From an uncultured Gammaproteobacteria bacterium (GTDB lineage Bacteria > Pseudomonadota > Gammaproteobacteria > CAZDOC01), in NCBI GenBank assembly GCA_964506945.1, contig CAZDOC010000007.1, forward strand, positions 1,284 through 65,283: DNA of 64,000 bases. Reading direction: 5' to 3'. The number at the start of each line of letters is the position of its first letter. The stretch's first letter is position 1. The notes below the pieces were generated by a model. The model had not been told where the DNA came from and made no database searches. It saw nothing but the letters and a program-made list of their open reading frames with translations. Position numbers and translations under genes: made by a program. Of this stretch, positions 28,423-64,000 are shown piece after piece.

Positions 28423-29403
28423 GTGCAGACGATGGCCCGGATCAATGAACAAGGCAGCCGTCGGGATCTGAAGGAGTCTGTTCGGCTGGCTATCGTCCAG
28501 GTCGAGGCCGAACAGTTATCCAACCGGGATTTCTCCCGTTTTGACTGCCAGCAGTTCGACTTGCCCGGGGAGCTGACCGTCTACGATATCACCATCGACC
28601 CGGCGATAATCAATCGCAAGGCCATGCATATCGGCAAGGATGCTAATAACGACTATTTCCTGACCACCCTGATCTATGGTGAGGCGCATATAGAACAACA
28701 GGGTGCGAGTTATACACTGAAACCGGGGGACCTCGCCCTGATGGCCGGCGGGTTACCCTATCTGATCAAATATACCGAACGCAGCAACAGACTGATTGTC
28801 CGTATTCCCTTTCACATCTTCAAGGAACGCCTGGTCAGCTCGGATCACCACTTGATCATCGGCAAGCTGCCCAGTGATGGTATCGGCCTGGTCGTCAACG
28901 ATCTGATGAAACTGGTGGCTTCGGATGCGCGCAAGCTGCCGATCACGGATCAATATACTTTGTCACAGAGTCTTCTGGAACTGACGGGCGCCTTGACCCG
29001 CTCACTGATCAAGACCCTGGATCTGAAGCAGAAAAGCAGGCATCCGGGGCTGTTCAACAGGGTATTGGCCTATATCGAGGAACACTACATGGATCCGGGT
29101 CTGACGCCGAAGATGATCGCGGATGCCAACGGCATATCGACCCGGTATCTGCATAGCCTGTTCCGGCAGTCCGGAAAAACGGTCTTGAGATGGGTATGGG
29201 AACGTCGCCTGAAGGCGGCTCGCAGCGATCTGCTGGATCCCACCCAGATGCAAAAACGTATCAGTGAAATAGCCTTCCGTCAGGGCTTCAACGATTCGGC
29301 GCATTTCAGTCGATCCTTCAGAAACCGTTTTGGAATTTCCCCCACTGAATTACGCCGCCGGGCCGCGGCGGCAAAATCAACGCCTCCAGCCGCGGATACC
29401 TGA
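28423..29403 (+). CDS. AraC family transcriptional regulator
   Basis: C-terminal double HTH (ISTRYLHSLF...ISEIAFRQGFNDSAHFSRSFRNRFGISPTELR) and N-terminal ligand-binding domain. Confidence 0.92.
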   Translation: MQTMARINEQGSRRDLKESVRLAIVQVEAEQLSNRDFSRFDCQQFDLPGELTVYDITIDPAIINRKAMHIGKDANNDYFLTTLIYGEAHIEQQGASYTLKPGDLALMAGGLPYLIKYTERSNRLIVRIPFHIFKERLVSSDHHLIIGKLPSDGIGLVVNDLMKLVASDARKLPITDQYTLSQSLLELTGALTRSLIKTLDLKQKSRHPGLFNRVLAYIEEHYMDPGLTPKMIADANGISTRYLHSLFRQSGKTVLRWVWERRLKAARSDLLDPTQMQKRISEIAFRQGFNDSAHFSRSFRNRFGISPTELRRRAAAAKSTPPAADT

Positions 29404-29643
29404 GTGCACTCACAGACAAGAGGTCGAACCTTGCAGGTCAAGTAAAATCTTGCCGTTGGGCCTATTATGGAAATACAGAAATTCATGGCGGGCTCCCGGG
29501 GCCCGTAACACTCCGAGACACGCTGGCAGAGCGGATGCATCCTGGCGAAATGCGGTCACATGGAGCGGCCGTCAACGCAGCAGGTTTCCGTGCTGCCGCC
29601 TGGAATGCCCGTGCTATCCCGGCAAACCACGAGGGACAACAAA

Positions 29644-30732
29644 ATGAACGCTCTCACACAACCGAAAGTGGGTGTCATATTCAAATCATATGAGCCCATG
29701 GCATCGATGCGGAAGTACGCCATGCAGACGGAGGCCTCCGGTATGACGGGAGGGTTCTGGATAGCCGAGGCCTATCACTGGTTCCGTCAATACGGCCTGG
29801 AATCGCGCGGCTGCTTCGCCACCCTGGCCGCGGTCGCCCTGGCAACCCGGGATATTCCCGTGGGGCTGGGCATCACCTCCCCCTACATCAGGCACCCGAC
29901 GGCGCTGGCTTCCGAGGCCGCGGCCATCGACGAACTCTCCAATGGGCGGTTCATCATGGGGATCGGCGTAGGCAAGGTCGGTATCGAGTACCTTGAATAC
30001 GATATCGATGTACTCAGGCCGGTTCCGGTCCATCATGAATCCATGCAGATCATGCGCAAGGTATTCAGCGGCGAGCCTTTTGATTACAAAGGCAAGATTT
30101 TTGAATCCAGCATGCCTGGGTATGACCGTGCCGCGGCGGGTCTGCGCACCGATATCCCCATCTATGTCGGTGCGACGGGGCCGTTCATGCAACGTCTTTC
30201 AGGCCGGGAAAGTGATGGCATGCTTCTGGCCGGCCTGACCTCGCCTGCATTCGTGAAGTATGCCCGGGACAATATGCGGGCCGGTGCTGAAAAGGCCGGT
30301 CGCACCCTGCCGGAAGATTTCCCCGTGGGCGGCGTCATACTCTGCGCCTGTTCCAGGGATGGCGACAAGGCCCGGGACGCGACCCGTTCCTATACGGGAA
30401 CCTATATCGTCAACAAGATACGCAATATCAAAAACGATGTCATTCTTGCAGGATCCGGACTTCCCGACGAGGCCTGGGAACCCTTCCGCAAAGCCATCGC
30501 CGAGGGCACACAGGACCATGTGACGCACCTGGTCACCGATGAGATGATGCGCAGGTTCACGGTGATCTCGGGTACACCGGAGGATTGCCTGGAGATCACC
30601 CAGGAACTGGTGGATGCCGGGCTCAACCTGCCGTTGCTGGAGGTTGTCGGTGAAACGGAACAGGACAACCTGGAGACCATACGACTGATGGGTCAGGAAG
30701 TCGTACCCAATCTTGTCCCGGGCGTGAGATAG
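29644..30732 (+). CDS. Luciferase-like (LLM) oxidoreductase, Mer-like, probably F420-dependent
   Basis: FWIAEAY, GLGITSPYIRHP, DELSNGRFIMGIGVG, PIYVGATGP. Start at 29644 with GAGGG RBS. F420 use is inferred from context. Confidence 0.82.
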   Translation: MNALTQPKVGVIFKSYEPMASMRKYAMQTEASGMTGGFWIAEAYHWFRQYGLESRGCFATLAAVALATRDIPVGLGITSPYIRHPTALASEAAAIDELSNGRFIMGIGVGKVGIEYLEYDIDVLRPVPVHHESMQIMRKVFSGEPFDYKGKIFESSMPGYDRAAAGLRTDIPIYVGATGPFMQRLSGRESDGMLLAGLTSPAFVKYARDNMRAGAEKAGRTLPEDFPVGGVILCACSRDGDKARDATRSYTGTYIVNKIRNIKNDVILAGSGLPDEAWEPFRKAIAEGTQDHVTHLVTDEMMRRFTVISGTPEDCLEITQELVDAGLNLPLLEVVGETEQDNLETIRLMGQEVVPNLVPGVR

Positions 30733-30742
30733 AGGTGGGATC

Positions 30743-31699
30743 ATGAAGCTGTCCACATTCAGAAAATGCCCGGACAAGGAGGTCACCATGGGAGGGGTGA
30801 TCAGGGATGTCTATATCGATCTGCATGTAATGTCTGGTGGCGAATTGCCGGCGGACATGATCGGATTCCTGCGCGCCGGTGAGGAGGCCATGGATCAGGC
30901 CCGCGCGCTGTTGCGGGAGGCTGAAGCCAATCTTCACGGCTCGCGGCCGGCGGATCTGTGTCGTGATGATGGTGCGCGCTATGCCTATGATGAAGACGAG
31001 GTGGAACAGCTGTCCCCGGTGCCTCAGCCCGGGAAGATAGTCCACACTTCCTGTAATTTTGATTCCCATCTTGCCGAACTGAGTACCTGGAACGATCCGG
31101 AATGGGCATCGCACAACTGGCAGGATTTCCATTTTGAGCATCCCACGGGCTTTCTGGAGGCGCCTTCTTCCGTGGTTCCAAACGGCGCCAGGGTCGAGAT
31201 CCCGGTCTTTACCCGGCAACTCGATTACGAGATAGAGATAGCCATCGTCATTGCCAGGGAGGCCTACAGGGTCTCCGTGGCCGACGCCCCTGACTATGTG
31301 GCGGGCTACATGATATTCAACGATCTCTCCGCACGTGATATCCAGGCCCGGGAACATTCCAACAAGGTCATCCTGATGGGCAAGAGTTTCAGGGGGTCAT
31401 GCCCGTTGGGACCCTTCCTGGTGACTACGGATGAATTGTCCGATCCGCACAATCTGGAGATGAAACTGCGCGTCAACGGTGAATTGCGTCAGGACGCGAA
31501 TACCTCGCAAATGCATTACAAGACCGCGGAGCTGGTTTCCTGGTGGTCACATATGGGCCTGTATCCCGGAGATGTGATCACCAGTGGCAGTCCTCCCGGG
31601 GTCATCGCGGGCATGAAGGAGCCGGTATGGCTGAAGCCCGGGGATGTGATCGATGCCAGTATTCAGGAACTGGGTACCCTGACCACCTATATCGGCTGA
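30743..31699 (+). CDS. Fumarylacetoacetate hydrolase family protein
   Basis: LDYEIEIAIVI, GYMIFNDLSARDIQ, GKSF, LGPFLVT, PGDVITSGSPPGV. Confidence 0.92.
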   Translation: MKLSTFRKCPDKEVTMGGVIRDVYIDLHVMSGGELPADMIGFLRAGEEAMDQARALLREAEANLHGSRPADLCRDDGARYAYDEDEVEQLSPVPQPGKIVHTSCNFDSHLAELSTWNDPEWASHNWQDFHFEHPTGFLEAPSSVVPNGARVEIPVFTRQLDYEIEIAIVIAREAYRVSVADAPDYVAGYMIFNDLSARDIQAREHSNKVILMGKSFRGSCPLGPFLVTTDELSDPHNLEMKLRVNGELRQDANTSQMHYKTAELVSWWSHMGLYPGDVITSGSPPGVIAGMKEPVWLKPGDVIDASIQELGTLTTYIG

Positions 31700-31750
31700 A
31701 TGCCGGGCTGCGCGGTATGCCGGCCGGTTGAATCTTAACGAGGCAGAACT

Positions 31751-33022: not shown

Positions 33023-33034
33023 ATTCAGGCAGCC

Positions 33035-35389
33035 ATGCACGACGTATACGAGGATATCCTCAGCAAGGCCGTATCGGATGGGCCGGTTTCCCATACGGAT
33101 GCCTTGCGCCTTGGCGAATGCCAGGACTTGCCGGCATTGATGCGGACTGCATCCCGCATCCGTGACCAGGGTCATGGCCCGATCGTGGGTTATTCCCCCA
33201 AGGTCTTCATTCCACTGACGAAGTTGTGTCGTGATGTCTGCCACTACTGTACCTTTGCCGAAGTGCCCGGAAGGGCGGGTCCCGCGTATCTGGATGCCGA
33301 TGAAGTCATGGCCATAGCCAGATCGGGTCTCGAGGCCGGATGTCACGAGGCCTTGTTCACCCTCGGCGACAAGCCGGAGTTGCGCTATGCGGCCGCGCGA
33401 CGCGAGTTGCGGGCACTGGGACACCGGACCACGCTTTCGTATCTGGCCGACATGGCCAGACTGGTGCTGAACGAGACCGGTCTGTTGCCCCATATCAATG
33501 CCGGGGTCATGGGCCGGGGGGATCTGCTCGCATTGAGAGCCGTTTCCCTGTCCCAGGGCCTGATGCTGGAAAACATCTCCTCGAGGCTATGCCTCAGGGG
33601 CGGCCCACATTTTGGATCCCCGGACAAGATCCCGGCGGCGCGTCTCAGTACCATCGCGGCTGCCGGTGGTGCTCGCGTGCCGTTCACCTCAGGGATCCTG
33701 ATAGGTATCGGGGAGACACGCAGAGAGCGTATCGAATCACTGCTGGCATTGCGGGATCTGAATGATACCGATGGCCATATCCAGGAGATCATCATCCAGA
33801 ATTTTCGCCGCAAGGCGGCGACTCTGATGCGGGATGCCCCGGAACCGGATATCGATGACATGCTCTGGACGGTTTGCATGGCGCGAATCATCTTCGGCGC
33901 GCGGATGAATATTCAGGTTCCACCCAACCTCATGCCTGAGGCCCTGCCGGCCCTCATCGATGCCGGTATCAATGACTGGGGCGGTATTTCACCGGTGACC
34001 CCGGATCATGTCAATCCCGAGGCGGCATGGCCACATCTGTCGCGACTGCGATCCGTCACTGAAGCCGCCGGAAAACAACTGACAGCCAGACTGCCGCTCT
34101 ATCCCTCCTATATCGAGCGTATGCACGAATGGGTGGACAGTGACCTTCATCGGCAGGTATTGCTGAGGATCGACGCCCTGGGTCATGCGCGTACCGATGA
34201 CTGGCATCCCGGAGATGGGCTGGCCGTCCCCCGGCTCAGACGACCCGGCGCGGTTACTGGCTCCGGCAGCAGACTCACTGGCGTGATCAGCAAGGCCATG
34301 GCGGGACAGAGGTTGAGCGAGGATGAGATCGTGGGGCTGTTCGCAAGCAGGGGGGGCGATCTCGAGGCGGTCTGCCGCGCCGCCGACGAGCTACGCATCG
34401 CTGTCAATGGCCAGGTCGTCAGTTATGTCGTCAATCGCAATATCAACTACACCAATATCTGTTATTTCGGTTGCCGGTTCTGCGCCTTCTCCAAGGGCCG
34501 GGTCAGCGAGAATCTGCGCGAACGCGGTTACAGGCTGGACCTGAAGGAGATCCAGAAACGTGTACTTGAGGCCTGGTCCGCCGGGGCAACGGAGGTCTGC
34601 CTGCAGGGGGGCATACACCCGGACTATACCGGTGAGACCTATCTCGCCATCGTCGATGCGATCAAGAAGGTACAGCCCAATATCCATGTGCATGCGTTCT
34701 CCCCCCTGGAGATCAGTCACGGCGCCGATACCCTGGGTCTGCCACTGAAGGCATATCTGCTGGAACTGCAGCAGGCGGGTCTGGCGAGTCTTCCCGGAAC
34801 GGCCGCGGAGATCCTGGACGACGAGGTTCGCGCCATCATATGCCCTGACAAACTGAATACCGGCGAATGGCTGAAGGTCATTAAAACGGCGCATGATATC
34901 GGCATGCCCACCACGGCGACGATCATGTTCGGGCATGTCGACACACCACGTCACTGGGCAAGGCATTTGTTGCTGATCCGTGATTTGCAGGCCGGGACCG
35001 GTGGCTTCACGGAGTTCGTGCCACTACCCTATATCCACATGCAGGCCCCGCTGAGTAAAAAGGGTCGTTCCAGGCCTGGCCCCACATACCGTGAGACGCT
35101 GTTGATGCATGCTGTCGCGCGTCTTGTCCTGCATACGGAAATCGGCAATATACAGGCGTCATGGGTGAAGCTGGGGCAGGAAGGGATCAAGGACTGCCTG
35201 GACGCCGGGGTAAACGATCTGGGTGGCACACTGATGAATGAGAGTATCAGTCGTGCGGCCGGTGCGGGTTTCGGGCAGGAATTCAGTGAAGCCGATCTCA
35301 GGTGTTTCATTCAGTCCTGTGGCAGGATGCCACAACAGCGGACGACACTTTATGGTGATGTGGCCGCCATAAGCAGTCGCAGTGCCTGA
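33035..35389 (+). CDS. fbiC: Bifunctional FO (7,8-didemethyl-8-hydroxy-5-deazariboflavin) synthase, CofG-CofH fusion
   Basis: CofG domain YSPKVFIPLTKLCRDVCHYC..QVPPNL..GINDWGGISP; CofH domain NRNINYTNICYFGCRFCAFSKG..EVCLQGG..TEFVPLP..GVNDLGGTLMNESISRAAG. Confidence 0.95.
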   Translation: MHDVYEDILSKAVSDGPVSHTDALRLGECQDLPALMRTASRIRDQGHGPIVGYSPKVFIPLTKLCRDVCHYCTFAEVPGRAGPAYLDADEVMAIARSGLEAGCHEALFTLGDKPELRYAAARRELRALGHRTTLSYLADMARLVLNETGLLPHINAGVMGRGDLLALRAVSLSQGLMLENISSRLCLRGGPHFGSPDKIPAARLSTIAAAGGARVPFTSGILIGIGETRRERIESLLALRDLNDTDGHIQEIIIQNFRRKAATLMRDAPEPDIDDMLWTVCMARIIFGARMNIQVPPNLMPEALPALIDAGINDWGGISPVTPDHVNPEAAWPHLSRLRSVTEAAGKQLTARLPLYPSYIERMHEWVDSDLHRQVLLRIDALGHARTDDWHPGDGLAVPRLRRPGAVTGSGSRLTGVISKAMAGQRLSEDEIVGLFASRGGDLEAVCRAADELRIAVNGQVVSYVVNRNINYTNICYFGCRFCAFSKGRVSENLRERGYRLDLKEIQKRVLEAWSAGATEVCLQGGIHPDYTGETYLAIVDAIKKVQPNIHVHAFSPLEISHGADTLGLPLKAYLLELQQAGLASLPGTAAEILDDEVRAIICPDKLNTGEWLKVIKTAHDIGMPTTATIMFGHVDTPRHWARHLLLIRDLQAGTGGFTEFVPLPYIHMQAPLSKKGRSRPGPTYRETLLMHAVARLVLHTEIGNIQASWVKLGQEGIKDCLDAGVNDLGGTLMNESISRAAGAGFGQEFSEADLRCFIQSCGRMPQQRTTLYGDVAAISSRSA

Positions 35390-35446
35390 GTTTGCCGGCG
35401 TGATGAGCGTGGCGATCTCTGGTCGGGCATACAGGAGGTGTTATTG

Positions 35447-36262
35447 ATGACAGCACATGAATTGCATGAGTCCCTGTCGGCCGCAAAGGTTTATGACCTC
35501 GGTCAGCCCTACTGGAATACCATGCCGGTGCATCCCTTCGATCCACCGTTCCAGTCTTATCTCTATCGTTACCATGAATACGTGCGCAAGTCCTTCGATG
35601 AACTGGGCATAGAGCCCGGCTTCTCCGACGCCATCAGTATCATGATCACCTCGAATCATTCAGGCACACATTTCGATCTGCCGATTCACATGTCACAGGA
35701 CAACAAGGTCCAGGGGATCGATGTTACTCCCTATCAGCGGGATACCGGCTTCAAGGACCTGCCGCAACCCCTGCACAGTCTCGAAGCCGTCCCCCCTCTC
35801 ATCCTGCGTACCGTATTGCTGGATATTCCGGCCTACAAGGGGGTAGATATACTGGCCGAACGCTATCCGATTACCGCGCAAGACCTCGAAGGGGCATTGG
35901 CGCGGGAAGAACTGTCCATCAATGAGGGCGATTGCATCCTGATCCGTACCGGCTATGGACGGTATTTCGAGACGGACAGGCAGACCTATCTGAATCGATG
36001 GGCCGGACTGACGGATGCGGCGGCCCATTGGCTCGCCGATCGGAACCCCCGCCTCGTAGGCATGGATAACCTGTCCCTGGGTGTTCCTGAGCCATTTTCA
36101 TGCCATCGCATCCTGCTGGTCGAACAGGGAATATACCTGATGAAGAGCCTGGCACTGGAGGAGATATGCCATGACGAACAATATCTGTCCACGGTGATCG
36201 TGTTGCCGCTGAAGATAAAAGGGGGGGAGGCTTCGCTGGTGCGGCCCATGGCGTTGGCATGA
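35447..36262 (+). CDS. Cyclase family hydrolase (kynurenine formamidase/isatin hydrolase-like)
   Basis: HSGTHFDLPIH, LIRTGY, LVGMDN, PLKIKGGEASLVRP. ATG at 35447 follows an AGGAGG RBS. Confidence 0.88.
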   Translation: MTAHELHESLSAAKVYDLGQPYWNTMPVHPFDPPFQSYLYRYHEYVRKSFDELGIEPGFSDAISIMITSNHSGTHFDLPIHMSQDNKVQGIDVTPYQRDTGFKDLPQPLHSLEAVPPLILRTVLLDIPAYKGVDILAERYPITAQDLEGALAREELSINEGDCILIRTGYGRYFETDRQTYLNRWAGLTDAAAHWLADRNPRLVGMDNLSLGVPEPFSCHRILLVEQGIYLMKSLALEEICHDEQYLSTVIVLPLKIKGGEASLVRPMALA

Positions 36263-42261: not shown

Positions 42262-42463
42262 GATGCCCCGTTTTTGTTATGCACCCACAGTCAACTGATC
42301 CGACATCCAAGGTCAAGCAGAAGCGGCCTGCCCATACTAGGATATGGATAAGGATTCTACTACGCCATCCTGACCCGGGACCAGATCCGGACGGAGTCCG
42401 GCAGCCTTGCGAGCGCCTGCTGGAACAGGTGACGACGAACAGTTTGCGACACGGAACATGACC

Positions 42464-52406: not shown

Positions 52407-52482
52407 AGGCGATCGTTCCAGCAGCCACCGCCAGGATGTCACGTCTCCCCCGAACAGAGCGCCCATCTACGAGAATGCCACC

Positions 52483-54919: not shown

Positions 54920-57691
54920 GTGAGTCGTATGCACGCACAAAGCAAGCCCCAGGGCACGGAAAGCAAGCCCCGGGGCAAGAAGATCTCCACCTATTGCTAT
55001 CAATGTGTCAACGGGCCGGACATCCTCACGGTCGAGGTCATCGACGGCGTGGCCACCCGGATCGAACCGAATTTCGACCTCAAGGGCGAGCACCCGGCCG
55101 ATGGCAAGGTCTGTGTCAAACCCTTTGGACTGATCCAGAAACTCTACAATCCCAACCGGCTCAAGAAGCCGATGAAGCGCACCAACCCGAAAAAGGGCAA
55201 GGATGAAGACCCGGGCTGGGTCGAGATCGGCTGGGACGAGGCCCTGGATATCGTGGCCGGGAAACTGGCCCGGATCCGGGAGCAGGGACTGACCGATGAA
55301 AACGGCAATCCCCGCCTGGCCTTTACCACCGGGGGGGCCGCGACCCCCTATAAATACATGGGCAGTTTCCCGGCCTTCCTGGTCGCCTGGGGGCCGATAG
55401 ACCAGAGCATCGGCGCGGGTGGCACCGTCAAGTGCTACCACAGCGAGCATATGTTCGGCGAACTCTGGCACCGCGCCTTTACCGTGTTGCCGGATACCCC
55501 CAGCTGTGAATACATCATCTCCTTCGGCAACAATATCAATGCCTCCGGTGGCGTGACCGGTGTGCGCCGGCATGCCGATGCCAGGGCGCATGGCATGAAA
55601 CGCATCCAGTTCGAGCCCCATCTGTCGGTGACCGGGGCCACGGCCTCGGAATGGGTGCCCATCAAGCCACAGACCGATTCCGCCGTGCTCTTCGCCATGC
55701 TGCACGTGCTGCTGCACGAAACCCCCATCGATGAGCTGGACGTGCCCTTCCTGCGGGACCATACCGCCTCACCCTACCTGGTCGGCCCCCACGGTTTCTA
55801 TCTGCGTGATCCCGGGTCCGGCAAGCCACTGGTGTGGGACAACAATACCACCGAGGCGGTGCCCTTCGATCGGGCCGGCATCGATCCCGCCCTGCTGGGG
55901 CCTTTCACGGTCGGCCGGGCGCTGGAGAAGGGCGCCGATGATGCGTCCTGGACACACGAGGGCGTGGTGGCCTTTACCGGACTGGACATGGCGCGCAAAC
56001 TCGTGGCCGACAAGACCCCGGAATGGGCCGAGGGGATCTCCGATGTCCCCGCCGCGACCACCCGGCGAGTGGCACGGGAATTCCTGCAGCACGCCCATAT
56101 CGGTGAGACCATCGAGATAGACGGCAGGGTCCTGCCCTATCGCCCGGTCGCGAGTGTACTGGGAAAATCCGTCAACAATGGCTGGGGCGGCTATGAATGT
56201 GTCTGGGCGCATACCATGATGCAGGTGCTGGTTGGCGCCCTGGAGGTGCCGGGCGGTCTGCTGGGCAGCACCGTGCACCTGTCCGGCGATACGGACTGGG
56301 ATCGCATGCTGACCGTGGAGCCGGGGGAGGACGGTTTCATGAAGGCCCCGTTCAATCCCACCAGCAAGGACGAATGGAACGCCCATCCGACCAACCGCCA
56401 TGCGGAAAGCAGTCTCACGCCCATGGCCGGTCACAACCAGGGGGCGCAGTTGTTCGGCGCCACGACCATGGCCTGGCTGCGTCTGCAGGGACGCGCCGCC
56501 AAGAGCTGGCCCAGGCCCAATCCGCCGGATGTGTGGTTCGTCTACAAGTGCAATCCGGCCATTTCATTTTCCGAGACCGACAGGATCTGCGAGGAGATGG
56601 CGCAGTTTCCGTTCATCGCGGCCTTCACCTATCAGCTGGACGAGACGGTACACTTCGCCGATGTGCTGATGCCGGAGGCGACCGATCTGGAAAGCGATCA
56701 ATTACTGCGTATCGGCGGGACGCACTATTTCGAGAATCACTGGGTGACTGAGGGCTGGGCCTTGCGCCAGGCGGTGGTCGAGCCCCAGGGTGAGGCGCGT
56801 GATTTCAGCTGGATCGCCAACCAGCTGGCGCGCAGGCTGGGTATGCTGGAAGAATACAACACCATGATCAACTTCGGTGTGTGCGGCATTCCACTGCAGG
56901 GAGAGGGTTATGATTTCAGCATCGACCCGACCACGGAACATCCCCAGGAAGAGATCTGGGATGCCGTGTGCAAGGCGGCCAGTTACGATATCACCGGCGG
57001 CCAGGAGACGCTCGGGATCGACTGGTTCAGGGAACACGGTTACAAGACCCGGCCCTTCTCGCGCCTGCACTGGTATCTGTTCCCGCTGATGCAGGACATG
57101 GGCCTGCGCTTCGAACTGCCCTACCAGGAACGCTATTTCCGCATGGGCCGGGAACTGGCCAACCGCCTGCACGAGACCGGCGCCGACTGGTGGGACCGGC
57201 AGCTGGCGGAATACGAGCCCCTGCCGGAATGGCGCGATCTGAACAAGCTCTGGGACGAGATCATCGCCAAGAACAACCATGTCGATCCCGCCGATTACCC
57301 CTTCTGGCTGCTGACCGGGCGCAGCATGCAGTATGCCTGGGGCGCCAATGTCAGCATACAGATGATGAATGAGGTCTCGAACAACGTATTCGGCCACGAC
57401 GGCATCATAATGAACGCCGGCAGGGCCGCGGAAATGGGTATCGAGGATGGCGATACCATCGAGGTGGAATCTCCCGTCGCCAGCACCCGCGGCATCGCGC
57501 GCCTGCGCCAGGGGGTGCGCCCGGATGTCATCATCATGCTGGCCCAGTTCGGGCAATGGAATACGCCCGTGGCCAAGGAACTGAAACGCCCCAACCTGAA
57601 CAGACTGGTGCCGATGAACCAGGATTCGGTCGATGCCGGCGGCGCGAGTATCGACGGCACCAAAGTCAAGATCAAACGCGTGGAGGCCTGA
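54920..57691 (+). CDS. DMSO-reductase-family Mo-bisPGD enzyme, phenylacetyl-CoA:acceptor oxidoreductase large subunit-like (PadB-like)
   Basis: TYCYQCVNGPD..IEPNF..HPADGKVCVKPFGLIQKLYNP resembles the PadB N-terminus as I recall it; no Tat signal; C-terminal LLTGRSMQY. Confidence 0.75.
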   Translation: MSRMHAQSKPQGTESKPRGKKISTYCYQCVNGPDILTVEVIDGVATRIEPNFDLKGEHPADGKVCVKPFGLIQKLYNPNRLKKPMKRTNPKKGKDEDPGWVEIGWDEALDIVAGKLARIREQGLTDENGNPRLAFTTGGAATPYKYMGSFPAFLVAWGPIDQSIGAGGTVKCYHSEHMFGELWHRAFTVLPDTPSCEYIISFGNNINASGGVTGVRRHADARAHGMKRIQFEPHLSVTGATASEWVPIKPQTDSAVLFAMLHVLLHETPIDELDVPFLRDHTASPYLVGPHGFYLRDPGSGKPLVWDNNTTEAVPFDRAGIDPALLGPFTVGRALEKGADDASWTHEGVVAFTGLDMARKLVADKTPEWAEGISDVPAATTRRVAREFLQHAHIGETIEIDGRVLPYRPVASVLGKSVNNGWGGYECVWAHTMMQVLVGALEVPGGLLGSTVHLSGDTDWDRMLTVEPGEDGFMKAPFNPTSKDEWNAHPTNRHAESSLTPMAGHNQGAQLFGATTMAWLRLQGRAAKSWPRPNPPDVWFVYKCNPAISFSETDRICEEMAQFPFIAAFTYQLDETVHFADVLMPEATDLESDQLLRIGGTHYFENHWVTEGWALRQAVVEPQGEARDFSWIANQLARRLGMLEEYNTMINFGVCGIPLQGEGYDFSIDPTTEHPQEEIWDAVCKAASYDITGGQETLGIDWFREHGYKTRPFSRLHWYLFPLMQDMGLRFELPYQERYFRMGRELANRLHETGADWWDRQLAEYEPLPEWRDLNKLWDEIIAKNNHVDPADYPFWLLTGRSMQYAWGANVSIQMMNEVSNNVFGHDGIIMNAGRAAEMGIEDGDTIEVESPVASTRGIARLRQGVRPDVIIMLAQFGQWNTPVAKELKRPNLNRLVPMNQDSVDAGGASIDGTKVKIKRVEA

Positions 57692-57694
57692 GCC

Positions 57695-58351
57695 ATGACT
57701 CGTTATGTAATGGTCGCGGACATGAACCGTTGCGTTGGCTGCCAGACCTGCACCGCGGCCTGCAAACATACCAACGCCACCCTGCCGCAGGTGGAATGGC
57801 GCAAGGTGCTCGATATCGAGTGGGGTGAGTACCCCGATGCCCACCGCGTCTTCATGCCCGTCGGTTGCCAGCACTGCGCCGATCCCCCCTGCATGAGCGT
57901 CTGTCCCAGCACCGCCACCGGGCAGCGCGAGGACGGCCTGGTCACCATCGATTACGATCTCTGCATCGGCTGTGGATACTGCATGGTGGCCTGCCCCTAC
58001 CAGGCCCGCTACAAGGTCTCGGAGCCGCACTTCGCCTATGGCGATACGCCGATGGCATCGGAGGCCGCGCGCTTCGATGAAAAGCGTATCGGTGTCGCCC
58101 AGAAATGCACCTTCTGCGCGGATCGCGTGGATGACGGCCTGGCCAGGGGCCTGACGCCGGGGCTCGATCCCGATGCCACGCCCGGATGCGTCAACGCCTG
58201 TATCGCCGATGCCCTCACCTTTGGCGATATCGAGGATGAAAACAGCAATGTCTCCCGCCTGCTGGAGGAGAACACCTGGTTCCAGATGCACGCCGAGCTG
58301 GAGACGGAGACCGGCTTTTATTACCTGTGGGACCAAGAGCCAGGGGAGTGA
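57695..58351 (+). CDS. 4Fe-4S dicluster subunit (PadC/DmsB-like)
   Basis: CVGCQTCTAAC, CQHCADPPCMSVCP, CIGCGYCMVACPY, KCTFC, PGCVNAC. Confidence 0.9.
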   Translation: MTRYVMVADMNRCVGCQTCTAACKHTNATLPQVEWRKVLDIEWGEYPDAHRVFMPVGCQHCADPPCMSVCPSTATGQREDGLVTIDYDLCIGCGYCMVACPYQARYKVSEPHFAYGDTPMASEAARFDEKRIGVAQKCTFCADRVDDGLARGLTPGLDPDATPGCVNACIADALTFGDIEDENSNVSRLLEENTWFQMHAELETETGFYYLWDQEPGE

Positions 58352-58358
58352 ACCCAAA

Positions 58359-59237
58359 GTGACGAGATATGGCAGTATTCTGCAAACCTACTGGGACTGG
58401 CGCGCCGCCGGCAACTTCATCTTTGGCGGCACCGGCAGCGGCCTGCTGATCGGTGCGGTCATGCTGGCCTATCCCGGCCCCCTGGACCCGGTGCTGGGCC
58501 TGCTGGCACTGGCCTTCATGGGCCTGGGGCTGTTCCTGGTCTGGCTGGAGATCGGCAAACCGCTGCGTTTCCTGCATGTGTACTTCCATCCGCAGACCTC
58601 GTGGATGACCCGCGAAGGGAGTGTCGCCGGCCTGCTGTTCCCGGTGGCCCTGCTGGCCATGTATCTGGGATCCGCCTGGCTGGTCGCGATCACGGGCCTG
58701 CTTGCGGCCATGTTCCTCTATTGTCAGGCCAGGATACTGCAGGCCTCGAAAGGGGTCCCTGCCTGGCGCGATCCCGCCATGGTGCCGCTGATCCTCGGCA
58801 CGGGTCTGGTCGAGGGTACGGCAATCGCCCTGGCCGCCCTGTGTCTGGGCGCCGGGCCGTCGCCGTCGCTGGTGACGGCCTTCGCCGTATTACTCCTGCT
58901 GCGGGCCTATCTGTGGAAGCGATACGGCAACAGTCTGCATCGGCATGATGCCCCCCGGGAGACACTGGCCGTCATCGATGGCATGGACGGCCTCACGCTG
59001 TGGGGCGGGAATATCGTCCCCCTGCTGCTGCTTATCGTCGCCTCGCTGGTCCCCGCCCTGGCCCCGTTGTCGCTCCTCCTCGCGGCGGCAGGCGCACTCT
59101 TCAGTGGCTGGCACATGAAATACGCCCTCGTCAGGCGGGCCTCCCAGCTACAGGGCTACGCCTTCGGCAGGCTGCGCAAGGGGCGGCCCAGGATCAAGCC
59201 CCCGGTACGCAGGCAGCCGGATCGTTTTGTGTTGTAG
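58359..59237 (+). CDS. Membrane anchor subunit (PadD/DmsC/NrfD-like)
   Basis: QTYWDWRAAGNFIFGGTGSG, EIGKPLR, SWMTRE; multiple TM segments. GTG start at 58359. Confidence 0.85.
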   Translation: MTRYGSILQTYWDWRAAGNFIFGGTGSGLLIGAVMLAYPGPLDPVLGLLALAFMGLGLFLVWLEIGKPLRFLHVYFHPQTSWMTREGSVAGLLFPVALLAMYLGSAWLVAITGLLAAMFLYCQARILQASKGVPAWRDPAMVPLILGTGLVEGTAIALAALCLGAGPSPSLVTAFAVLLLLRAYLWKRYGNSLHRHDAPRETLAVIDGMDGLTLWGGNIVPLLLLIVASLVPALAPLSLLLAAAGALFSGWHMKYALVRRASQLQGYAFGRLRKGRPRIKPPVRRQPDRFVL

Positions 59238-59306: not shown

Positions 59307-59891
59307 ATGTATCCAAGCATCGAAAAGGCCAGCGAGGGAGAGTCTGACAGTCCCATCGTCACCTTCATCATCAACAACCGGGTGATCCCCGGAAAGGAAG
59401 CGGATTTCGAAAGATTCCTGAAAGACATCAACAAAAAGGCCATGACCTATCCCGGACATATGGGGGTGAATTTCATCCGTCCGGGTCCGAACGACCAGAC
59501 CTATACCACCATCGTCCGTTTCGACAACTACGAGCATCTGCATGACTGGCTGGAATCGGATGCGCGCAAGGAATACATGAAGAATATCGAGGACCTGGTG
59601 GAAAGCGATCCGGAGATCCGTATCGAAACCGGCCTGGAGTACTGGTTCACCCCGCTGGCGGTGGATCCCAAGATCCCCAGGCGCTGGAAACAGATGGTGA
59701 TCACGCTAAGCGCCATCTACCCGCTGACCCTGCTGCTGGGGGTGTTCTTCAGCCTGTTCGATCCTCATTCGGTCTTTGTTACCGAACCGCTGATACACAA
59801 ACTGCTCGGCTCCATCCTGCTGGTGTTCCTGATGGTCTACCTGGTGATGCCCGGATATACCCGGCTGATGGCGAAGTGGCTGTACAAATGA
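59307..59891 (+). CDS. Antibiotic biosynthesis monooxygenase (ABM)-domain protein with C-terminal TM helices
   Basis: YPGHMGV, IVRFDNYEHLHDWLES..RK, TGLEYWF, PRRWKQ, VMPGYTRL. Confidence 0.78.
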   Translation: MYPSIEKASEGESDSPIVTFIINNRVIPGKEADFERFLKDINKKAMTYPGHMGVNFIRPGPNDQTYTTIVRFDNYEHLHDWLESDARKEYMKNIEDLVESDPEIRIETGLEYWFTPLAVDPKIPRRWKQMVITLSAIYPLTLLLGVFFSLFDPHSVFVTEPLIHKLLGSILLVFLMVYLVMPGYTRLMAKWLYK

Positions 59892-59941: not shown

Positions 59942-61606
59942 TCACATATCGGGATAGTTCGGCCCGCCGCCCCCTTCCGGCGTCACCCAGGTGATGTTCC
60001 GGCACGGGTCCTTGATGTCGCAGGCCTTGCAGTGCAGGCAGTTCTGGGCGTTGATCTGCAGGCGTGGCCCACCCGTTTCGTCCGTGACGATTTCATAGAC
60101 CCCGGCGGGGCAGTAGCGTTGTTCCGGGGCATCGTAGCGTTCCAGGCTGGCGCCGATGGCCAGTCGTGGATCCTTGAGTCGCAGATGGCAGGGCTGGTCT
60201 TCCTCGTGATTGGTGTTGGAGAGAAAGACCGATGACAGGCGATCGAAGCTGATCTGCGCATCGGGTTTCGGGTAGGCGATCCGCCGGCACTGTTGCCGGG
60301 GACGCAGTCTGTCACGGTCGCTGACACGGTCATGGATCGTCAGCGGCAGGGCCCCGGAGAAGAGATTCTGATCGAGCAGGTTATAGGCCCCGCCGGCGTA
60401 GAGGCCGAAGCGGTGTATGACGGAGCCGAAATTCCGGCTGCGATGGAGTTCGTCATACAGCCAGGACTGCCGGTAGCGTAGCTCATGCCCCCCGGGGTCT
60501 TCATCCTCCCTGGCGGTGTGGTCCAGCGCGGCATGGATGCTCTCGGCCGCCAGGGCGCCGGACTTCATGGCCGTATGGATGCCCTTGATCTTGGAGAAAT
60601 TCAGGGTTCCGGCCTCACAGCCGGCCAGCAGGGCCCCGGGCATGACCATCCTGGGCTGGGACAGCAGCCCGCCCTTGCTGAGGGTCCTGGCGCCATAGGC
60701 GATGCGGCGTCCACCGGCCAGGGTCTCGCGTATCAGGGGATGCTGCTTGTAGCGCTGGAATTCCTCGAACGGGCTGAGGTAGGGGTTGGCATAATTGAGA
60801 TCGGTGATCAGGCCCACGCTGACCCGGTTGTCGGCCAGGTGATAGAGGAAGGATCCGCCCGTGGCTGCCGATTCACTGAGTGGCCAGCCGGCGCCGTGGA
60901 GGACCCGCCCGGGTTCATGCCGGGCCGGATCGATCTCCCACAGTTCCTTGATGCCGAGGGCATAATGTTGCGGGTCGCGGCCTTCATCGAGCCGGAAATG
61001 CGCGATCAGCCGCCGGCCCAGGTGACCGCGGCAGCCCTCCGCGAAGAGGGTGTATCTCGCCCGCAACGCCATGCCGGGCTGATAGCCGGGTTTGTGGCTG
61101 CCGTCCGCGGCCACGCCCATATCCCCGGTGATCACCCCGCTGACCCGGTTGCCCTCATCGATGATCACCTCCGCGGCGGGGAAGCCGGGGAAGATGTCCA
61201 CCCCCAGTTCCTCCGCCTGCCGGGCCAGCCAGCGGCACAGCAGGCCCAGGCTGATGATATGGTTGCCCTGGTTGCGCATGGGTCTGGGGACCAGGAATTC
61301 CGGGATACGGGTGGCATGCCGCGGGTCCCTGAAAAAATAGACCTCGTCACGGCCGACCGGGACCTCGACCGGGGCCCCTCGCTGTTTCCAGTCCGGGAGC
61401 AACTCATCCAGCGCGCGGGTCTCGAAGATTGCGCCCGAGAGGATATGCGCCCCGATCTCAGAGCCCTTCTCCAGGATACAGACCGATATATCCTGCTCAC
61501 TGTCCGCGGCCAGCTGGCGCAGGCGGATCGCCGCCGACAGTCCGCAGGGGCCCCCGCCTACGATGACCACGTCGTATTCCATGCTTTCCCGTTGCATCGG
61601 CGCCAT
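59942..61606 (-). CDS. Electron transfer flavoprotein-ubiquinone oxidoreductase
   Basis: YDVVIVGGGPCGLSAA, EKGSEIGAHILSGA, YCPAGVYE, NCLHCKACDIKDP, PEGGGGPNY. Confidence 0.96.
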   Translation of the reverse strand: MAPMQRESMEYDVVIVGGGPCGLSAAIRLRQLAADSEQDISVCILEKGSEIGAHILSGAIFETRALDELLPDWKQRGAPVEVPVGRDEVYFFRDPRHATRIPEFLVPRPMRNQGNHIISLGLLCRWLARQAEELGVDIFPGFPAAEVIIDEGNRVSGVITGDMGVAADGSHKPGYQPGMALRARYTLFAEGCRGHLGRRLIAHFRLDEGRDPQHYALGIKELWEIDPARHEPGRVLHGAGWPLSESAATGGSFLYHLADNRVSVGLITDLNYANPYLSPFEEFQRYKQHPLIRETLAGGRRIAYGARTLSKGGLLSQPRMVMPGALLAGCEAGTLNFSKIKGIHTAMKSGALAAESIHAALDHTAREDEDPGGHELRYRQSWLYDELHRSRNFGSVIHRFGLYAGGAYNLLDQNLFSGALPLTIHDRVSDRDRLRPRQQCRRIAYPKPDAQISFDRLSSVFLSNTNHEEDQPCHLRLKDPRLAIGASLERYDAPEQRYCPAGVYEIVTDETGGPRLQINAQNCLHCKACDIKDPCRNITWVTPEGGGGPNYPDM

Positions 61607-61614
61607 GTCCCCCG

Positions 61615-62568
61615 TCAGCGGTCGCCCGGTCCAGCGTCCAGCTCGCGCAACAGCTGGGGGACGATCTCGAACAGATCGCCGACGATACCGTAGTTCGCGA
61701 CCTGGAATATCGGCGCATCGGCATCCTTGTTGATGGCCACCACCACCTGGCTGTCCTTCATCCCGGCAAGGTGCTGGATGGCCCCTGAGATGCCGACGGC
61801 GATGTACAGTTTGGGCGCGACGACCTTGCCGGTCTGGCCAACCTGGGCATCATTGCCGATAAAACCGGCGTCCACCGCCGCCCTGGATGCGCCAATCGCG
61901 GCGCCCAGCCTGTCCGCCAGCTGCTCGACCAGGGCGAAGTTCTCCTTGCTGCCCAGACCACGGCCGCCGGAGACGACGATCTCCGCGCTGGCCAGATCGG
62001 GGCGATCCGAGATCGTCGGGTCGTTGCGCACCAGTTCGGACAGGCCGCTGTCAACGGCCCCGCCGATCTCGACGATGCCGGCGGCTTCGCCTTGCCGGCC
62101 CCCGGCGGCCGGGAAGGCGGTGGCGCGGACCGTGAGCACCTTGATCGGATCGTCCGACTGCACCGTGGCGATGATATTTCCGGCATAGATCGGCCGCTGG
62201 AAGGTATCCGGCGACTGGACGGCGATGATCTCGGATATCTGCGCGACATCGAGCAGGGCCGCCACGCGCGGCAACAGGTTCTTGCCGGTGGTCGTTGCCG
62301 GGCCCAGGATGTGGGTGTACGCGGATGCCTGCTGGCGGACCAGGGGCGCGATATTCTCTGCCAGTTGCGCCGCGCAGGCGGGATCGTCGCATAACAGGAC
62401 CTGCCCGACCCCGGCGATCGTGGTCAGGCCCAGGGCGATGTCCCGGCACTGGTGTCCCGCCACCAGGACATCGACGCTCGCGGAGATGCCAAGGCCCGCG
62501 GTGATCGCCGACAGCGTGGCGCTGTTCAGGGTCTGGTTGTCGTGGTCGGCTATTATCAGGCATTGCAT
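61615..62568 (-). CDS. etfA: Electron transfer flavoprotein alpha subunit
   Basis: VVSGGRG, GASRAAVDAG, QVGQTGKVVAP, GISGAIQHLAGM. Confidence 0.96.
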   Translation of the reverse strand: MQCLIIADHDNQTLNSATLSAITAGLGISASVDVLVAGHQCRDIALGLTTIAGVGQVLLCDDPACAAQLAENIAPLVRQQASAYTHILGPATTTGKNLLPRVAALLDVAQISEIIAVQSPDTFQRPIYAGNIIATVQSDDPIKVLTVRATAFPAAGGRQGEAAGIVEIGGAVDSGLSELVRNDPTISDRPDLASAEIVVSGGRGLGSKENFALVEQLADRLGAAIGASRAAVDAGFIGNDAQVGQTGKVVAPKLYIAVGISGAIQHLAGMKDSQVVVAINKDADAPIFQVANYGIVGDLFEIVPQLLRELDAGPGDR

Positions 62569-62569
62569 G

Positions 62570-63319
62570 TCAGATCACCCCGGCTTCATGACGCAGTTTA
62601 TCCAGCAGCTCGGCCGCGTCCGCGACCAGGATCCCGGCCTCGCGCGTGGCCGGATCGGCAACCCGCAGCAGTTTCAGGCGGGGCTTGAGCGCGACCCCGA
62701 GGTCTCCGGGCGTGAGTGTCTCCATGGGTTTCTTCCTGGCCTTCATGATATCCGGGAGCTTGGCGTAGCGCGGCTCGTTCAGGCGCAGGTCGGTGGTGAC
62801 CACGGCAGGCAGTTTCAGGCGCAGTGTCTGTGTGCCGCTGTCCGTTTCCCGGGTCACCAGCGCGCTGTCGTCCTCCAGTTTCAGCTCGCAGGCGAAGCTG
62901 CCCTGGCCCCAGCCGAGCAGGGCGGCGAGCATCTGGCCGGTCTGGTTGGCGTCATCGTCTATGGCCTGTTTGCCCAGCAGTATCAGCCCCGGTCCTTGCC
63001 GGTCGGCGATGGCCTTGAGCAGCCTGGCCACATCCAGGGGCTGGAGATCCCCGTCGGTATCGACATGCATGCCGCGGTCCGCACCCATGGCCAGCCCGGC
63101 GCGGATGGTCTCCTGGCAGGCGGGTCCTCCCAGGGACACCAGCACCACCTCGCTGGCCAGGCCCTGCTCCTTGAGCCTCAGGGCCTCTTCCACGGCGATC
63201 TCGTCGAAGGGATTCATAGACATCTTGAGATTGCTGGTATCGACGCCGCTGCCATCGGCCTTCGGATGCACGCGGACGTTGTAGTCCACCACGCGTTTGA
63301 CCGCCACCAGTATGATCAT
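62570..63319 (-). CDS. etfB: Electron transfer flavoprotein beta subunit
   Basis: VAVKRVVD, MNPFDEIAVEEA, GKQAIDDD, NEPRY. Start at 63319. Confidence 0.96.
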   Translation of the reverse strand: MIILVAVKRVVDYNVRVHPKADGSGVDTSNLKMSMNPFDEIAVEEALRLKEQGLASEVVLVSLGGPACQETIRAGLAMGADRGMHVDTDGDLQPLDVARLLKAIADRQGPGLILLGKQAIDDDANQTGQMLAALLGWGQGSFACELKLEDDSALVTRETDSGTQTLRLKLPAVVTTDLRLNEPRYAKLPDIMKARKKPMETLTPGDLGVALKPRLKLLRVADPATREAGILVADAAELLDKLRHEAGVI

Positions 63320-64000
63320 TCCTCTTCCCCCCATGATTGAATGACGCCGAGTTGCCGCAAACCATCGATCCGTTCCCGCTCCAGGCCCAGCAGTTCATCC
63401 AGGACCGCGTCGGTATGTTCCCCCAGGAGTGGCGGCGCCTGCTCACTGTGATGCGCCGCGCGCGCGAACCTGATCGGGCTGGCCACAGTATCGAACTCGC
63501 CGGCCAGGCGGTGGGACATTCTTCTGAGCATGCCCCGGTGGCGGATCTGCCGATCGTCGAAGACCTTGTCGATGGTGTTGATCGGCCCGCAGGGGATCCG
63601 CCGGGAACGCAATTCCCGCAGCCATTCCCGCGCGCTCCGGGTCTTGAAGGCCTGCTCCAGGATCGGCAGCAGGGCCGCCTTGTTGCGTACCCGTTCACGG
63701 TTGCTGGCATAGCGTGGGTCCCCGGCAAGTTGCGGTTGCCCGAGCAGTTCGCACAGGCGGGAGAACTGTGCGTCATTGCCGACCGCCAGGACGATATGCG
63801 CATCGGCGGTGGCGAAGCTCTGGTAGGGAACGATATTCGGGTGGCCGTTGCCCTGGCGGCGGGGAACCGCGCCCGTGGTCAGGTAGTTCATGGCCTGGTT
63901 GGCGAGCACGGCGGCCTGCACGTCCAGCAGCGAGAGGTCGATATAATCGCCCTTGCCAGAGTTCCGGCGTTCGATCAGCGCCGCCAGGATGGCGACGGTC
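63316..64000 (-). CDS. CaiB/BaiF (family III) CoA-transferase, 3' part (5' end beyond window)
   Basis: Frame is open to the edge: TVAILAALIERRNSGKGDYIDLSLLDVQAAVLANQAMNY..GNGHPNIVPYQ..VGNDAQF..PPLLGEHT. Confidence 0.92.
   Translation of the reverse strand, partial: TVAILAALIERRNSGKGDYIDLSLLDVQAAVLANQAMNYLTTGAVPRRQGNGHPNIVPYQSFATADAHIVLAVGNDAQFSRLCELLGQPQLAGDPRYASNRERVRNKAALLPILEQAFKTRSAREWLRELRSRRIPCGPINTIDKVFDDRQIRHRGMLRRMSHRLAGEFDTVASPIRFARAAHHSEQAPPLLGEHTDAVLDELLGLERERIDGLRQLGVIQSWGEEE

Follow-up and report, generated by a model that had tools for sequence, protein, structure and literature searches.

A 64,000-nucleotide stretch of contig CAZDOC010000007.1 (positions 1,284–65,283) from an uncultured gammaproteobacterium (the window, by which this whole stretch is meant) carries the genes for the synthesis and recycling of coenzyme F420. 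Beside them lie the genes of a Mer-like oxidoreductase of the luciferase-like (LLM) family, two xanthine-oxidase-family enzymes (XO1 and XO2), a PadB-like molybdenum (Mo) enzyme and several hydrolases. This gene set probably encodes an undescribed pathway degrading a nitrogen-containing ring compound, and it may explain why the bacteria that carry it make F420. Comparative genomics strongly supports a single functional unit made up of the LLM, the Mo enzymes and the genes for F420, and the grouping of the genes is far above chance. We lean towards a conserved, horizontally spread catabolic supercluster in which F420 would be made to serve the Mer-like LLM working with the Mo enzymes, and whose mechanistic steps we infer below.

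The open reading frames (ORFs) of 26.8–64 kb of the window were translated and profile-searched against Pfam and NCBIfam, with the curated NCBIfam cut-offs used for equivalogs, while the closest characterised relatives were sought by sequence searches of solved structures (PDB). Every gene named in the preliminary description of the stretch was recovered at about the place assigned to it (Table 1). FbiC, CofC, CofD, CofE and NpdG each exceeded their own equivalog cut-off. All F420 genes are single-copy in the source genome (2.66 Mb, 97% complete, without close relatives among the genomes compared) and lie on the window's contig. CofE is a single-domain protein, and no FbiB-type nitroreductase domain was found in the examined ORFs of the contig.

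The relatives of the LLM were collected by scanning one genome per species. A total of 152 were found, and the locus counts given here refer to the best 80 of these 152, with neighbours counted in the 10 kb around the LLM. The top 13 NCBIfam matches of the LLM were all F420 LLM families (1e-49 to 1e-17), with FMN families appearing from ~1e-13. Its best PDB match was Mer (139 bits), followed by Fgd and Adf; against the Mer model TIGR03555 it scored 168 bits (cut-off 348.7), which makes it Mer-like rather than Mer. The gene fbiC is co-operonic with the LLM gene in 52 of 80 loci, and npdG lies directly 3' of it in several related loci. These best matches, together with the adjacency of fbiC and npdG, lead to the prediction that the LLM is an F420 user, and the Mer-like assignment of the preliminary description is upheld. 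The homologs are 362 aa long, which places the real start at ~29644.

Co-occurrence analysis highlighted the genes that travel with the LLM. Across 80 species of Alpha-, Beta- and Gammaproteobacteria, the LLM keeps an identity of 71–85%. Among them are Thiodiazotropha, Rhodocyclaceae, Sulfuritalea, Azonexus, Halieaceae, Woeseiaceae, Wenzhouxiangellaceae, Afipia and Elongatibacter sediminis, which is in culture. The cluster is carried by sulfur-oxidising symbionts, by symbionts of sponges and by bacteria of sediments and wastewater. Genes for an FAH-family enzyme (77/80), an M20 metallohydrolase (71/80), FbiC (52/80), a homocitrate-synthase-like enzyme (HCS; 49/80) and an AraC-family regulator (36/80) are its most frequent neighbours. 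The PanE pair (24/80), an M24 hydrolase (14/80), the cyclase (14/80), XO1 or XO2 subunits (13–19/80) and a DMSO-reductase-family enzyme (11/80) were also found there.

At the genome level, 50 LLM-positive genomes were compared with LLM-negative genomes of the window's class using Fisher's test. XO1 orthologs (at least 59% identity, CoxG fusion kept) occurred in 47 of 50 LLM-positive against 0 of 30 LLM-negative genomes, and XO2 orthologs (at least 58% identity, with a clear gap to the 40% paralogs) in 35 of 50 against 0 of 39. The corresponding values were 47/50 against 1/30 for the PadB-like enzyme and 48/50 against 3/30 for CofD (p = 4e-13 to 6e-19). The sole same-class relative with XO2 (genome G010) also carries the LLM. 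The single unit proposed earlier thus finds its marker genes in 70–96% of LLM-positive and 0–10% of LLM-negative genomes.

We further examined 30–60 kb around the Mo and F420 genes in nine other genomes, which with the window gives ten superclusters. All ten contain XO1, XO2, the PadB-like A-B-C set and CofCDE, and most contain LLM-FAH-M20 and PanE-PanE-M24. Their gene orders and orientations vary, and their hosts (Afipia, Hyphomicrobiales, Rhodocyclaceae, Sulfuritalea, Woeseiaceae and others) belong to three classes. Co-occurrence of the modules in other genomes, on which the earlier proposal depended, is therefore clear both from these superclusters and from the genome-level counts. The G+C content is 55–59% across the BNR/MMPL genes and the LLM operon (22000–42000) versus 60–66% on both sides, which, with the high LLM identity across three classes, is compatible with horizontal spread of the core operon.

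A second Mer-like LLM gene was observed on the contig shortly after the glutarate block described below, at a distance of ~5.3 kb from the window end (stretch L092:6550-7548, plus strand). Its product shares 31% identity with the first LLM and reaches 208 bits against the Mer model; the organism therefore has two candidate F420 clients. Its neighbours encode a free-standing CoxG and a DUF3179 protein (L092:4101-4796, minus strand, and L092:5195-6430, plus strand); CoxG is present in nine of the ten superclusters and DUF3179 in three.

XO1 (45993–50448, minus strand) and XO2 (51042–54813) are both trimers with all domains, namely a large subunit with hammerhead and MoCoBD_1/2 domains, a [2Fe-2S] small subunit and an FAD subunit. 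Both large subunits are single-copy in the source genome and lie on the window's contig. XO1 was closest to quinoline 2-oxidoreductase, XO2 to 4-hydroxybenzoyl-CoA reductase (4-HBCR) and XdhA, and neither large subunit exceeded any equivalog cut-off. Named functions were accordingly rejected for XO2 as XdhA (625 bits, cut-off 916) and for XO1 as CoxL of aerobic CO dehydrogenase (425, cut-off 991) or as a group 5 enzyme (500, cut-off 950). XO2 was also rejected as 4-HBCR (TIGR03194, 561 bits, cut-off 995), as its FAD subunit has 291 aa and no Cys cluster. A Cys-rich [4Fe-4S] insert in the FAD subunit is the defining feature of 4-HBCR.

The third Mo enzyme belongs to the DMSO-reductase family. 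Its A/B/C genes (54920–59237) encode a Mo subunit without a Tat motif, a 4x[4Fe-4S] subunit and an NrfD-like membrane subunit, and in the arrangement seen here it is predicted to be co-transcribed with an XO-family trimer. Homologs of the PadB-like subunit at 60–77% identity carry the automated JGI name 'phenylacetyl-CoA:acceptor oxidoreductase'. The PDB search with this subunit returned generic or distant relatives only, and neither PadEFGHI nor a CoA ligase was found among the window ORFs. The window subtype has orthologs 67–77% identical in 25 of 50 LLM-positive genomes, without FdhD. In many relatives its place is taken by a second subtype, only ~30% identical and followed by an NrfD-like gene and FdhD; in Rhodocyclaceae, Woeseiaceae, Afipia and others, this subtype adjoins the LLM cluster (loci such as L094-L113). 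CoxG-, CoxD- and CoxE-like maturation genes are present in most of the ten superclusters.

The M20 metallohydrolase matched NaaA structure 5k8m with 197 bits (next structure 56 bits) and reached 103 bits against YgeY (cut-off 321). The amino group that NaaA hydrolyses stands beta to a carboxylate, with a double bond between them. The FAH-family enzyme is HpcE/acylpyruvase-like in the PDB search. The cyclase retains the metal motif HxGTHxD (as HSGTHFD), and its family includes hydrolases of amides and lactams, kynurenine formamidase and isatin hydrolase among them. The slot that it occupies, between M20/FbiC and HCS, holds a cyclase in the window and 13 other loci and a PuuE-like gene of the polysaccharide-deacetylase fold in 31 related loci, the sole NCBIfam match of the latter being allantoinase PuuE. 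This looks like non-orthologous displacement, and the alternation of two unrelated cyclic-amide hydrolases in one slot argues for a lactam- or imide-opening step. HxnM, the cyclic imidase of the fungal nicotinate pathway, shares the PuuE/polysaccharide-deacetylase fold (PMC9304392).

Among the other genes, an NCS1 nucleobase-type permease was found at five related loci and MFS homologs in three of the ten superclusters. The two PanE copies are 39% identical to each other, and the order PanE-PanE-M24 is conserved. PDB searches with the cyclase, M24, PanE and HCS returned generic or distant relatives only. In Betaproteobacteria (L094-L095, L113, L111-L112), PanE-PanE-M24 stands directly upstream of the medium, small and large subunit genes of XO2 on the same strand, and this fusion to the XO2 operon ties PanE and M24 to XO2 rather than to the LLM.

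The ORFs of 26.8–64 kb contained no domain of a Rieske, extradiol or intradiol dioxygenase, which agrees with the earlier report that ring-hydroxylating and ring-cleaving dioxygenases are lacking. In one group of related loci (L015, L017, L019-L022, L024, L026, L029, L032, L054, L070), LLM-FAH-M20-FbiC is followed by a 703-aa cytoplasmic molybdenum bis-pyranopterin guanine dinucleotide (Mo-bisPGD) enzyme and a Rieske dioxygenase alpha/beta pair. None of HCS, PanE and M24 lies within 10 kb in these loci, and several of the genomes are sponge-derived by isolate name; they may represent an oxygen-using variant of the pathway. The oxygen independence first proposed would fit the window locus, but it need not extend to all relatives.

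The contig was also read beyond the window end, where the CoA-transferase gene is followed by a glutaryl-CoA dehydrogenase (GCDH) gene and a divergent LysR gene. On this reading, one glutarate block on the minus strand comprises the electron transfer flavoprotein (ETF):quinone oxidoreductase (ETF-QO), both ETF subunits (alpha and beta), the CoA-transferase and GCDH. The module is complete in gene content (GCDH, family III CoA-transferase and LysR) and resembles the gcdR-gcdH-gcoT arrangement of Pseudomonas. The best match of the CoA-transferase was succinate-glutarate CoA-transferase (NF052585, 499 bits, under the cut-off of 750), and GCDH was named from homologs ~80% identical called glutaryl-CoA dehydrogenase (ETF). 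The ETF, ETF-QO and CoA-transferase genes that had been counted as pathway parts are present, but the block has the look of an ordinary glutarate module. The CoA-transferase, of family III, has to be corrected to the minus strand and extends beyond the window end. GCDH lies in the LLM cluster at six loci and in five of the ten superclusters, and the copy inside the LLM cluster of Rhodocyclaceae and Halieaceae is 73% identical to the window-adjacent one, which suggests a C5 dicarboxylate product.

The most likely course of the pathway can be drawn from these enzymes. The substrate would be a small N-heterocyclic acid, with a pyridine or pyridone ring (nicotinate-like compounds or hydroxypyridines) as the best guess, taken up by the MFS transporter or, in some relatives, by the NCS1 permease. 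XO1 and/or XO2 would hydroxylate the ring next to the nitrogen with oxygen from water, giving a pyridone, of which the LLM would reduce a C=C bond with F420H2. FbiC and CofCDE would make the cofactor and NpdG would recharge it with NADPH. The cyclase, or in many relatives the PuuE/cyclic-imidase-like enzyme, would then open the lactam or imide, the NaaA-like M20 enzyme would free ammonium from a beta-amino-acrylate-type enamine, and the FAH enzyme would decarboxylate or cleave a 1,3-dicarbonyl product. The C5 skeleton would end as glutarate, which the CoA-transferase, GCDH, ETF and ETF-QO would pass to beta-oxidation and the quinone pool. A ferredoxin-dependent 6-hydroxynicotinate reductase carries out the equivalent reduction in the nicotinate pathway already described.

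Two versions of this course fit about equally well. In the first, nicotinate would pass through 6-hydroxynicotinate, tetrahydro-6-oxonicotinate (THON), 2-formylglutarate and glutarate semialdehyde to glutarate, which is the Azorhizobium route (PMC3511419) with non-homologous enzymes and with the second XO enzyme acting as an aldehyde oxidoreductase. In the second, pyridine or 2-hydroxypyridine would pass through 2,6-dihydroxypyridine, glutarimide and glutaramate to glutarate. It is possible, though doubtful, that the Mer-like LLM is specifically an F420H2-dependent dearomatising (pyridone/ene) reductase that, with XO1, XO2 and the PadB-like enzyme, takes a pyridine-type ring to glutarate without oxygenases and so supplies the missing role of F420 in Proteobacteria. 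The N-heterocyclic substrate suggested in the preliminary description is favoured by indirect signs (the XO enzymes, the PuuE-like alternative, the NCS1 permease and the NaaA-like M20 enzyme).

Several observations weigh against this reading. HCS, the two PanE enzymes, M24 and the PadB-like complex are conserved yet have no step in the model; HCS, the PanE pair and the PadB-like enzyme suggest chemistry on 2-oxoacids or an alpha-methylene group. XO2 is absent from 15 of 50 LLM-positive genomes, and the two PadB-like subtypes are only ~30% identical. The LLM could run in the reductive or the oxidative direction. In addition, 2-formylglutarate lacks the 2-oxoacid handle on which FAH enzymes usually depend. 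With a Rieske pair beside the core in one group, the pathway need not be oxygen-independent everywhere, and GCDH is common in Proteobacteria, so that its position in the cluster may partly be coincidence. The LLM-negative controls belong to families other than those of most LLM-positive genomes, and the LLM-positive genomes are phylogenetically non-independent.

The alternative that survives best, although we consider it unlikely, keeps the same unit and gives it a non-heterocyclic aromatic substrate such as a hydroxy- or amino-aromatic or arylacetic acid. The PadB-like enzyme would then oxidise an alpha-methylene group, an HcrA-like XO2 would introduce or eliminate a hydroxyl group on the ring, the LLM would act as a reductase of a polyhydroxylated ring in the manner of phloroglucinol or hydroxyhydroquinone reductases, and the FAH enzyme or cyclase would cleave a cyclic 1,3-diketone. 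The best solved relative of XO2 (4-HBCR), the JGI name of the DMSO-reductase-family homologs, the HpcE-like FAH enzyme and the action of NaaA on aminobenzoate all suit such a substrate, and GCDH also closes the anaerobic benzoyl-CoA route. However, that route was rejected, as both benzoyl-CoA reductase families (PF06050, PF01314) are absent from the genome. Combined with an XO2 that falls short of the 4-HBCR cut-off (561 against 995 bits) and has no Cys-rich Fe-S insert in its FAD subunit, this weakens the benzoyl-CoA reading of the XO2, PadB-like and GCDH genes. CoA ligase and PadEFGHI are likewise missing from the window, and the PuuE-like imidase and NCS1 permease of the relatives indicate C–N bonds.

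Dehydrogenases are numerous among the F420 LLMs; Fgd and Adf are examples, and both appear among the matches of the window LLM. The same unit could accordingly run with the LLM in the oxidative direction, as a dehydrogenase that reduces F420 with an alcohol, hemiaminal or C–N bond of a (partly) saturated ring of, for example, the piperidine or pipecolate type. F420 would be the electron acceptor and NpdG would hand the hydride to NADP+; NpdG/Fno is reversible, and glutarate also ends piperidine, lysine and 5-aminovalerate catabolism. We regard this as less probable still: the closest relative, Mer, is physiologically an F420H2-dependent reductase, XO-family enzymes hydroxylate aromatic or aldehyde carbons, matching an aromatic start, and if the LLM were oxidative like the three Mo enzymes, there would be no obvious reason to employ a cofactor of low potential.

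Very improbable is the absence of any common pathway, with the F420 operon, unrelated Mo enzymes and the glutarate module merely adjacent, or with LLM-FAH-M20-HCS-PanE serving biosynthesis, since the typically biosynthetic character of HCS- and PanE-type enzymes, the place of fbiC within the operon and the likeness of the ETF/GCDH block to a standard glutarate operon with its own LysR regulator are set against the co-occurrence of XO1, XO2, PadB-like enzyme and CofD with the LLM (p as above), the ten superclusters of differing gene order in three classes, and AraC regulators with a ligand domain, transporters and four hydrolases that suit catabolism.

The catabolic supercluster was compared with characterised systems. 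The reductive nicotinate pathway of Eubacterium barkeri and Azorhizobium likewise uses an XO-family Mo hydroxylase, there nicotinate dehydrogenase, followed by ring reduction, hydrolytic opening and ammonium release (PMC3511419, PMC9304392), and Azorhizobium caulinodans takes nicotinate through THON and glutarate to glutaryl-CoA (PMC3511419), an end with CoA-transferase and GCDH that is present at the window locus and relatives. In place of the ferredoxin-dependent iron-sulfur flavoprotein Hnr and the enamidase of the E. barkeri-type cluster, the window carries the LLM, a cyclase/PuuE-like hydrolase, the NaaA-like M20 and FAH, and it has F420 synthesis, the PadB-like enzyme, HCS, PanE and M24 in addition. 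An E. barkeri nicotinate cluster was rejected, as no Pfam domains of Hnr or the amidohydrolase-superfamily enamidase were found in the ORFs of 26.8–64 kb and 10 kb beyond.

The reductive pathway for urate and 2,8-dioxopurine (XdhD, YgfK/UacX, SsnA, HyuA, YgeW/UacY, YgeY, YgeX) similarly combines an XO enzyme, a dearomatising reductase, ring-opening hydrolases and an M20 enzyme. The likely end product at the window differs, being glutarate and not diaminopropionate/pyruvate. A urate cluster was also rejected: Amidohydro_1 (SsnA/HyuA), OTCace (YgeW) and PALP (YgeX) domains are absent from the region, and the M20 is NaaA-like. In a Chloroflexota reductive urate cluster described in 2025 from bioinformatics only, a putative F420 LLM stands in place of the ring reductase (PMC12507026). 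The fungal hxn pathway of Aspergillus nidulans comprises the Mo hydroxylase HxnS, the ene-reductase HxnT, HxnW, the cyclic imidase HxnM and the amidase HxnN (PMC9304392). It shares Mo hydroxylation, ring saturation and opening by a PuuE-fold cyclic imidase, the fold of the slot gene in 31 loci, but has O2-dependent monooxygenases, an FMN ene-reductase and a 2-hydroxyglutarate end, and the window itself carries the cyclase-family gene.

The npd picrate/2,4-dinitrophenol cluster of Rhodococcus and Nocardioides pairs an NADPH:F420 reductase, of which the window has the NpdG equivalog, with LLM-type F420H2 enzymes. In that cluster, an electron-poor ring receives hydride from NpdC and NpdI, which are hydride transferases of the LLM family. 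The npd cluster is actinobacterial, is without Mo enzymes and acts on nitroaromatic substrates, whereas the window LLM is closest to Mer. PadBCD of Thauera and Aromatoleum resembles the PadB-like complex in its Mo subunit without export signal, four-cluster Fe-S subunit and NrfD-like membrane subunit, a likeness known from layout and JGI naming. It differs in that PadEFGHI, PadJ and CoA-ligase genes are missing here and in the predicted co-transcription with an XO trimer. Proteobacterial F420 operons (Paracoccus, Oligotropha, Mycetohabitans; PMC8498797) share fbiC, cofC, cofD, single-domain cofE and fno/npdG, and the window is unlike them in tying these genes to a defined catabolic set. The homarine pathway (homABCDER) was rejected, its enzymes being different (an FAD/TgnAB-like pair, a peptidase and an aldehyde dehydrogenase). 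No description of an F420 and Mo-hydroxylase cluster was found in the full-text literature searched. This supports the novelty first claimed for the cluster, with the Chloroflexota urate LLM as a partial precedent.

The features of the locus are listed in Table 1. The gaps from the LLM to the first PanE gene are 10–94 bp, compatible with one operon. The MocA-like gene just upstream of the AraC gene belongs to the gene set; it adjoins the AraC and LLM genes in four related loci, its product scored 151 bits against TIGR03310 (cut-off 186), and the N-terminal half had no family match. BNR/Ycf48-like and MMPL/RND-type membrane proteins (23145–26608) precede MocA-AraC-LLM, in the same order as in four related loci (L012, L035, L037, L040), and might serve the unit in transport or in the cell envelope. 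The small ABM-domain membrane protein is not a conserved member of the gene set. Upstream of 26.8 kb lie housekeeping genes such as ftsK, lolA, serS and pntA. Promoter and terminator scans gave matches no more numerous than in shuffled sequence, and many long unannotated ORFs (c8, c22, u52, u54) were rejected as antisense artefacts of GC-rich genes.

Table 1. Genes of the locus, with positions in the window, strand and the basis of each assignment (scores in bits unless given as E-values).
Feature	Position	Strand	Basis and remarks
MocA-like molybdenum cofactor cytidylyltransferase	26793..28415	+	Pfam NTP_transf_3 6e-42; C-terminal domain, residues ~347-537
AraC-family regulator with AraC_binding_2 domain	28423..29403	+	Pfam; homolog beside LLM in 36/80 loci
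Mer-like LLM oxidoreductase, predicted F420 user	29644..30732	+	Pfam Bac_luciferase; ORF opens 29560; 362 aa
FAH-family enzyme (HpcE/acylpyruvase/oxaloacetate-decarboxylase-like)	30743..31699	+	Pfam, NCBIfam, PDB
M20 metallohydrolase, closest to NaaA	31751..33022	+	PDB 5k8m 197
FbiC (CofG-CofH fusion), FO synthase	33035..35389	+	NF006687 1095, cut-off 1018
Cyclase-family metal hydrolase (kynurenine formamidase/isatin hydrolase family)	35438..36262	+	Pfam Cyclase
Homocitrate/isopropylmalate-synthase-like (HCS/IPMS-like), no regulatory domain	36357..37553	+	Under every equivalog cut-off
PanE/ApbA-family 2-oxoacid reductase, copy 1	37569..38522	+	Pfam, NCBIfam
PanE/ApbA-family 2-oxoacid reductase, copy 2	38779..39726	+	Pfam, NCBIfam
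M24 creatinase/prolidase-fold hydrolase	39840..40994	+	Pfam, NCBIfam
MFS transporter, oxalate/formate-lactate (monocarboxylate) type	40960..42261	-	Pfam, NCBIfam
NpdG/Fno, NADPH-dependent F420 reductase	42407..43129	+	TIGR01915 199.5, cut-off 149.8
CofE, F420-0:glutamate ligase, single domain	43374..44348	-	TIGR01916 265, cut-off 181; real start probably further downstream
CofD	44316..45296	+	TIGR01819 290, cut-off 257
CofC	45298..45933	+	TIGR03552 130.5, cut-off 105
XO1 large Mo subunit, N-terminal CoxG (SRPBCC) domain	45993..49067	-	Pfam; PDB quinoline 2-oxidoreductase 372
XO1 [2Fe-2S] small subunit	49071..49589	-	Pfam
XO1 FAD medium subunit	49552..50448	-	Pfam, NCBIfam
XO2 FAD medium subunit, no Cys-rich insert	51042..51917	+	Pfam, NCBIfam
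XO2 [2Fe-2S] small subunit	51927..52406	+	Pfam
XO2 large Mo subunit	52294..54813	+	Real start near 52470; PDB 4-hydroxybenzoyl-CoA reductase alpha 379
PadB-like DMSO-reductase-family Mo subunit	54920..57691	+	Pfam, NCBIfam; no Tat signal, incomplete N-terminal Cys motif
Four-cluster [4Fe-4S] subunit (PadC/DsrO/NrfC-like)	57695..58351	+	Pfam, NCBIfam
NrfD-like membrane subunit	58173..59237	+	Pfam NrfD weak, 25; real start probably after 58351
ABM-domain protein, hydrophobic C-terminal tail	59307..59891	+	Pfam; homologs in just 2/80 loci
ETF:quinone oxidoreductase	59942..61606	-	Pfam
ETF alpha subunit	61615..62568	-	Pfam
ETF beta subunit	62570..63334	-	Pfam
Family III CoA-transferase (succinate-glutarate type), runs past window end	63316..64000	-	CoA_transf_3 4.6e-133

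In a 2021 review, the reason for F420 production by Proteobacteria is listed among the open questions (PMC8498797). The results presented here tie F420 synthesis to a specific LLM and to Mo enzymes across at least 50 species of three classes and thereby give a testable hypothesis for its role, for which a cultured carrier, Elongatibacter sediminis CH-27, exists. If the proposed pathway is true, it would be a new enzymatic solution for the oxygen-independent breakdown of N-heterocycles, with an F420-dependent ring reductase, an NaaA-like enamine hydrolase and a new PadB-like Mo enzyme as new functions. In the more specific reading with the LLM as a dearomatising reductase, unrelated enzymes would replace the ferredoxin-dependent Hnr and enamidase chemistry, and the pathway would be widespread in marine-sediment bacteria, sponge and clam symbionts and wastewater bacteria.

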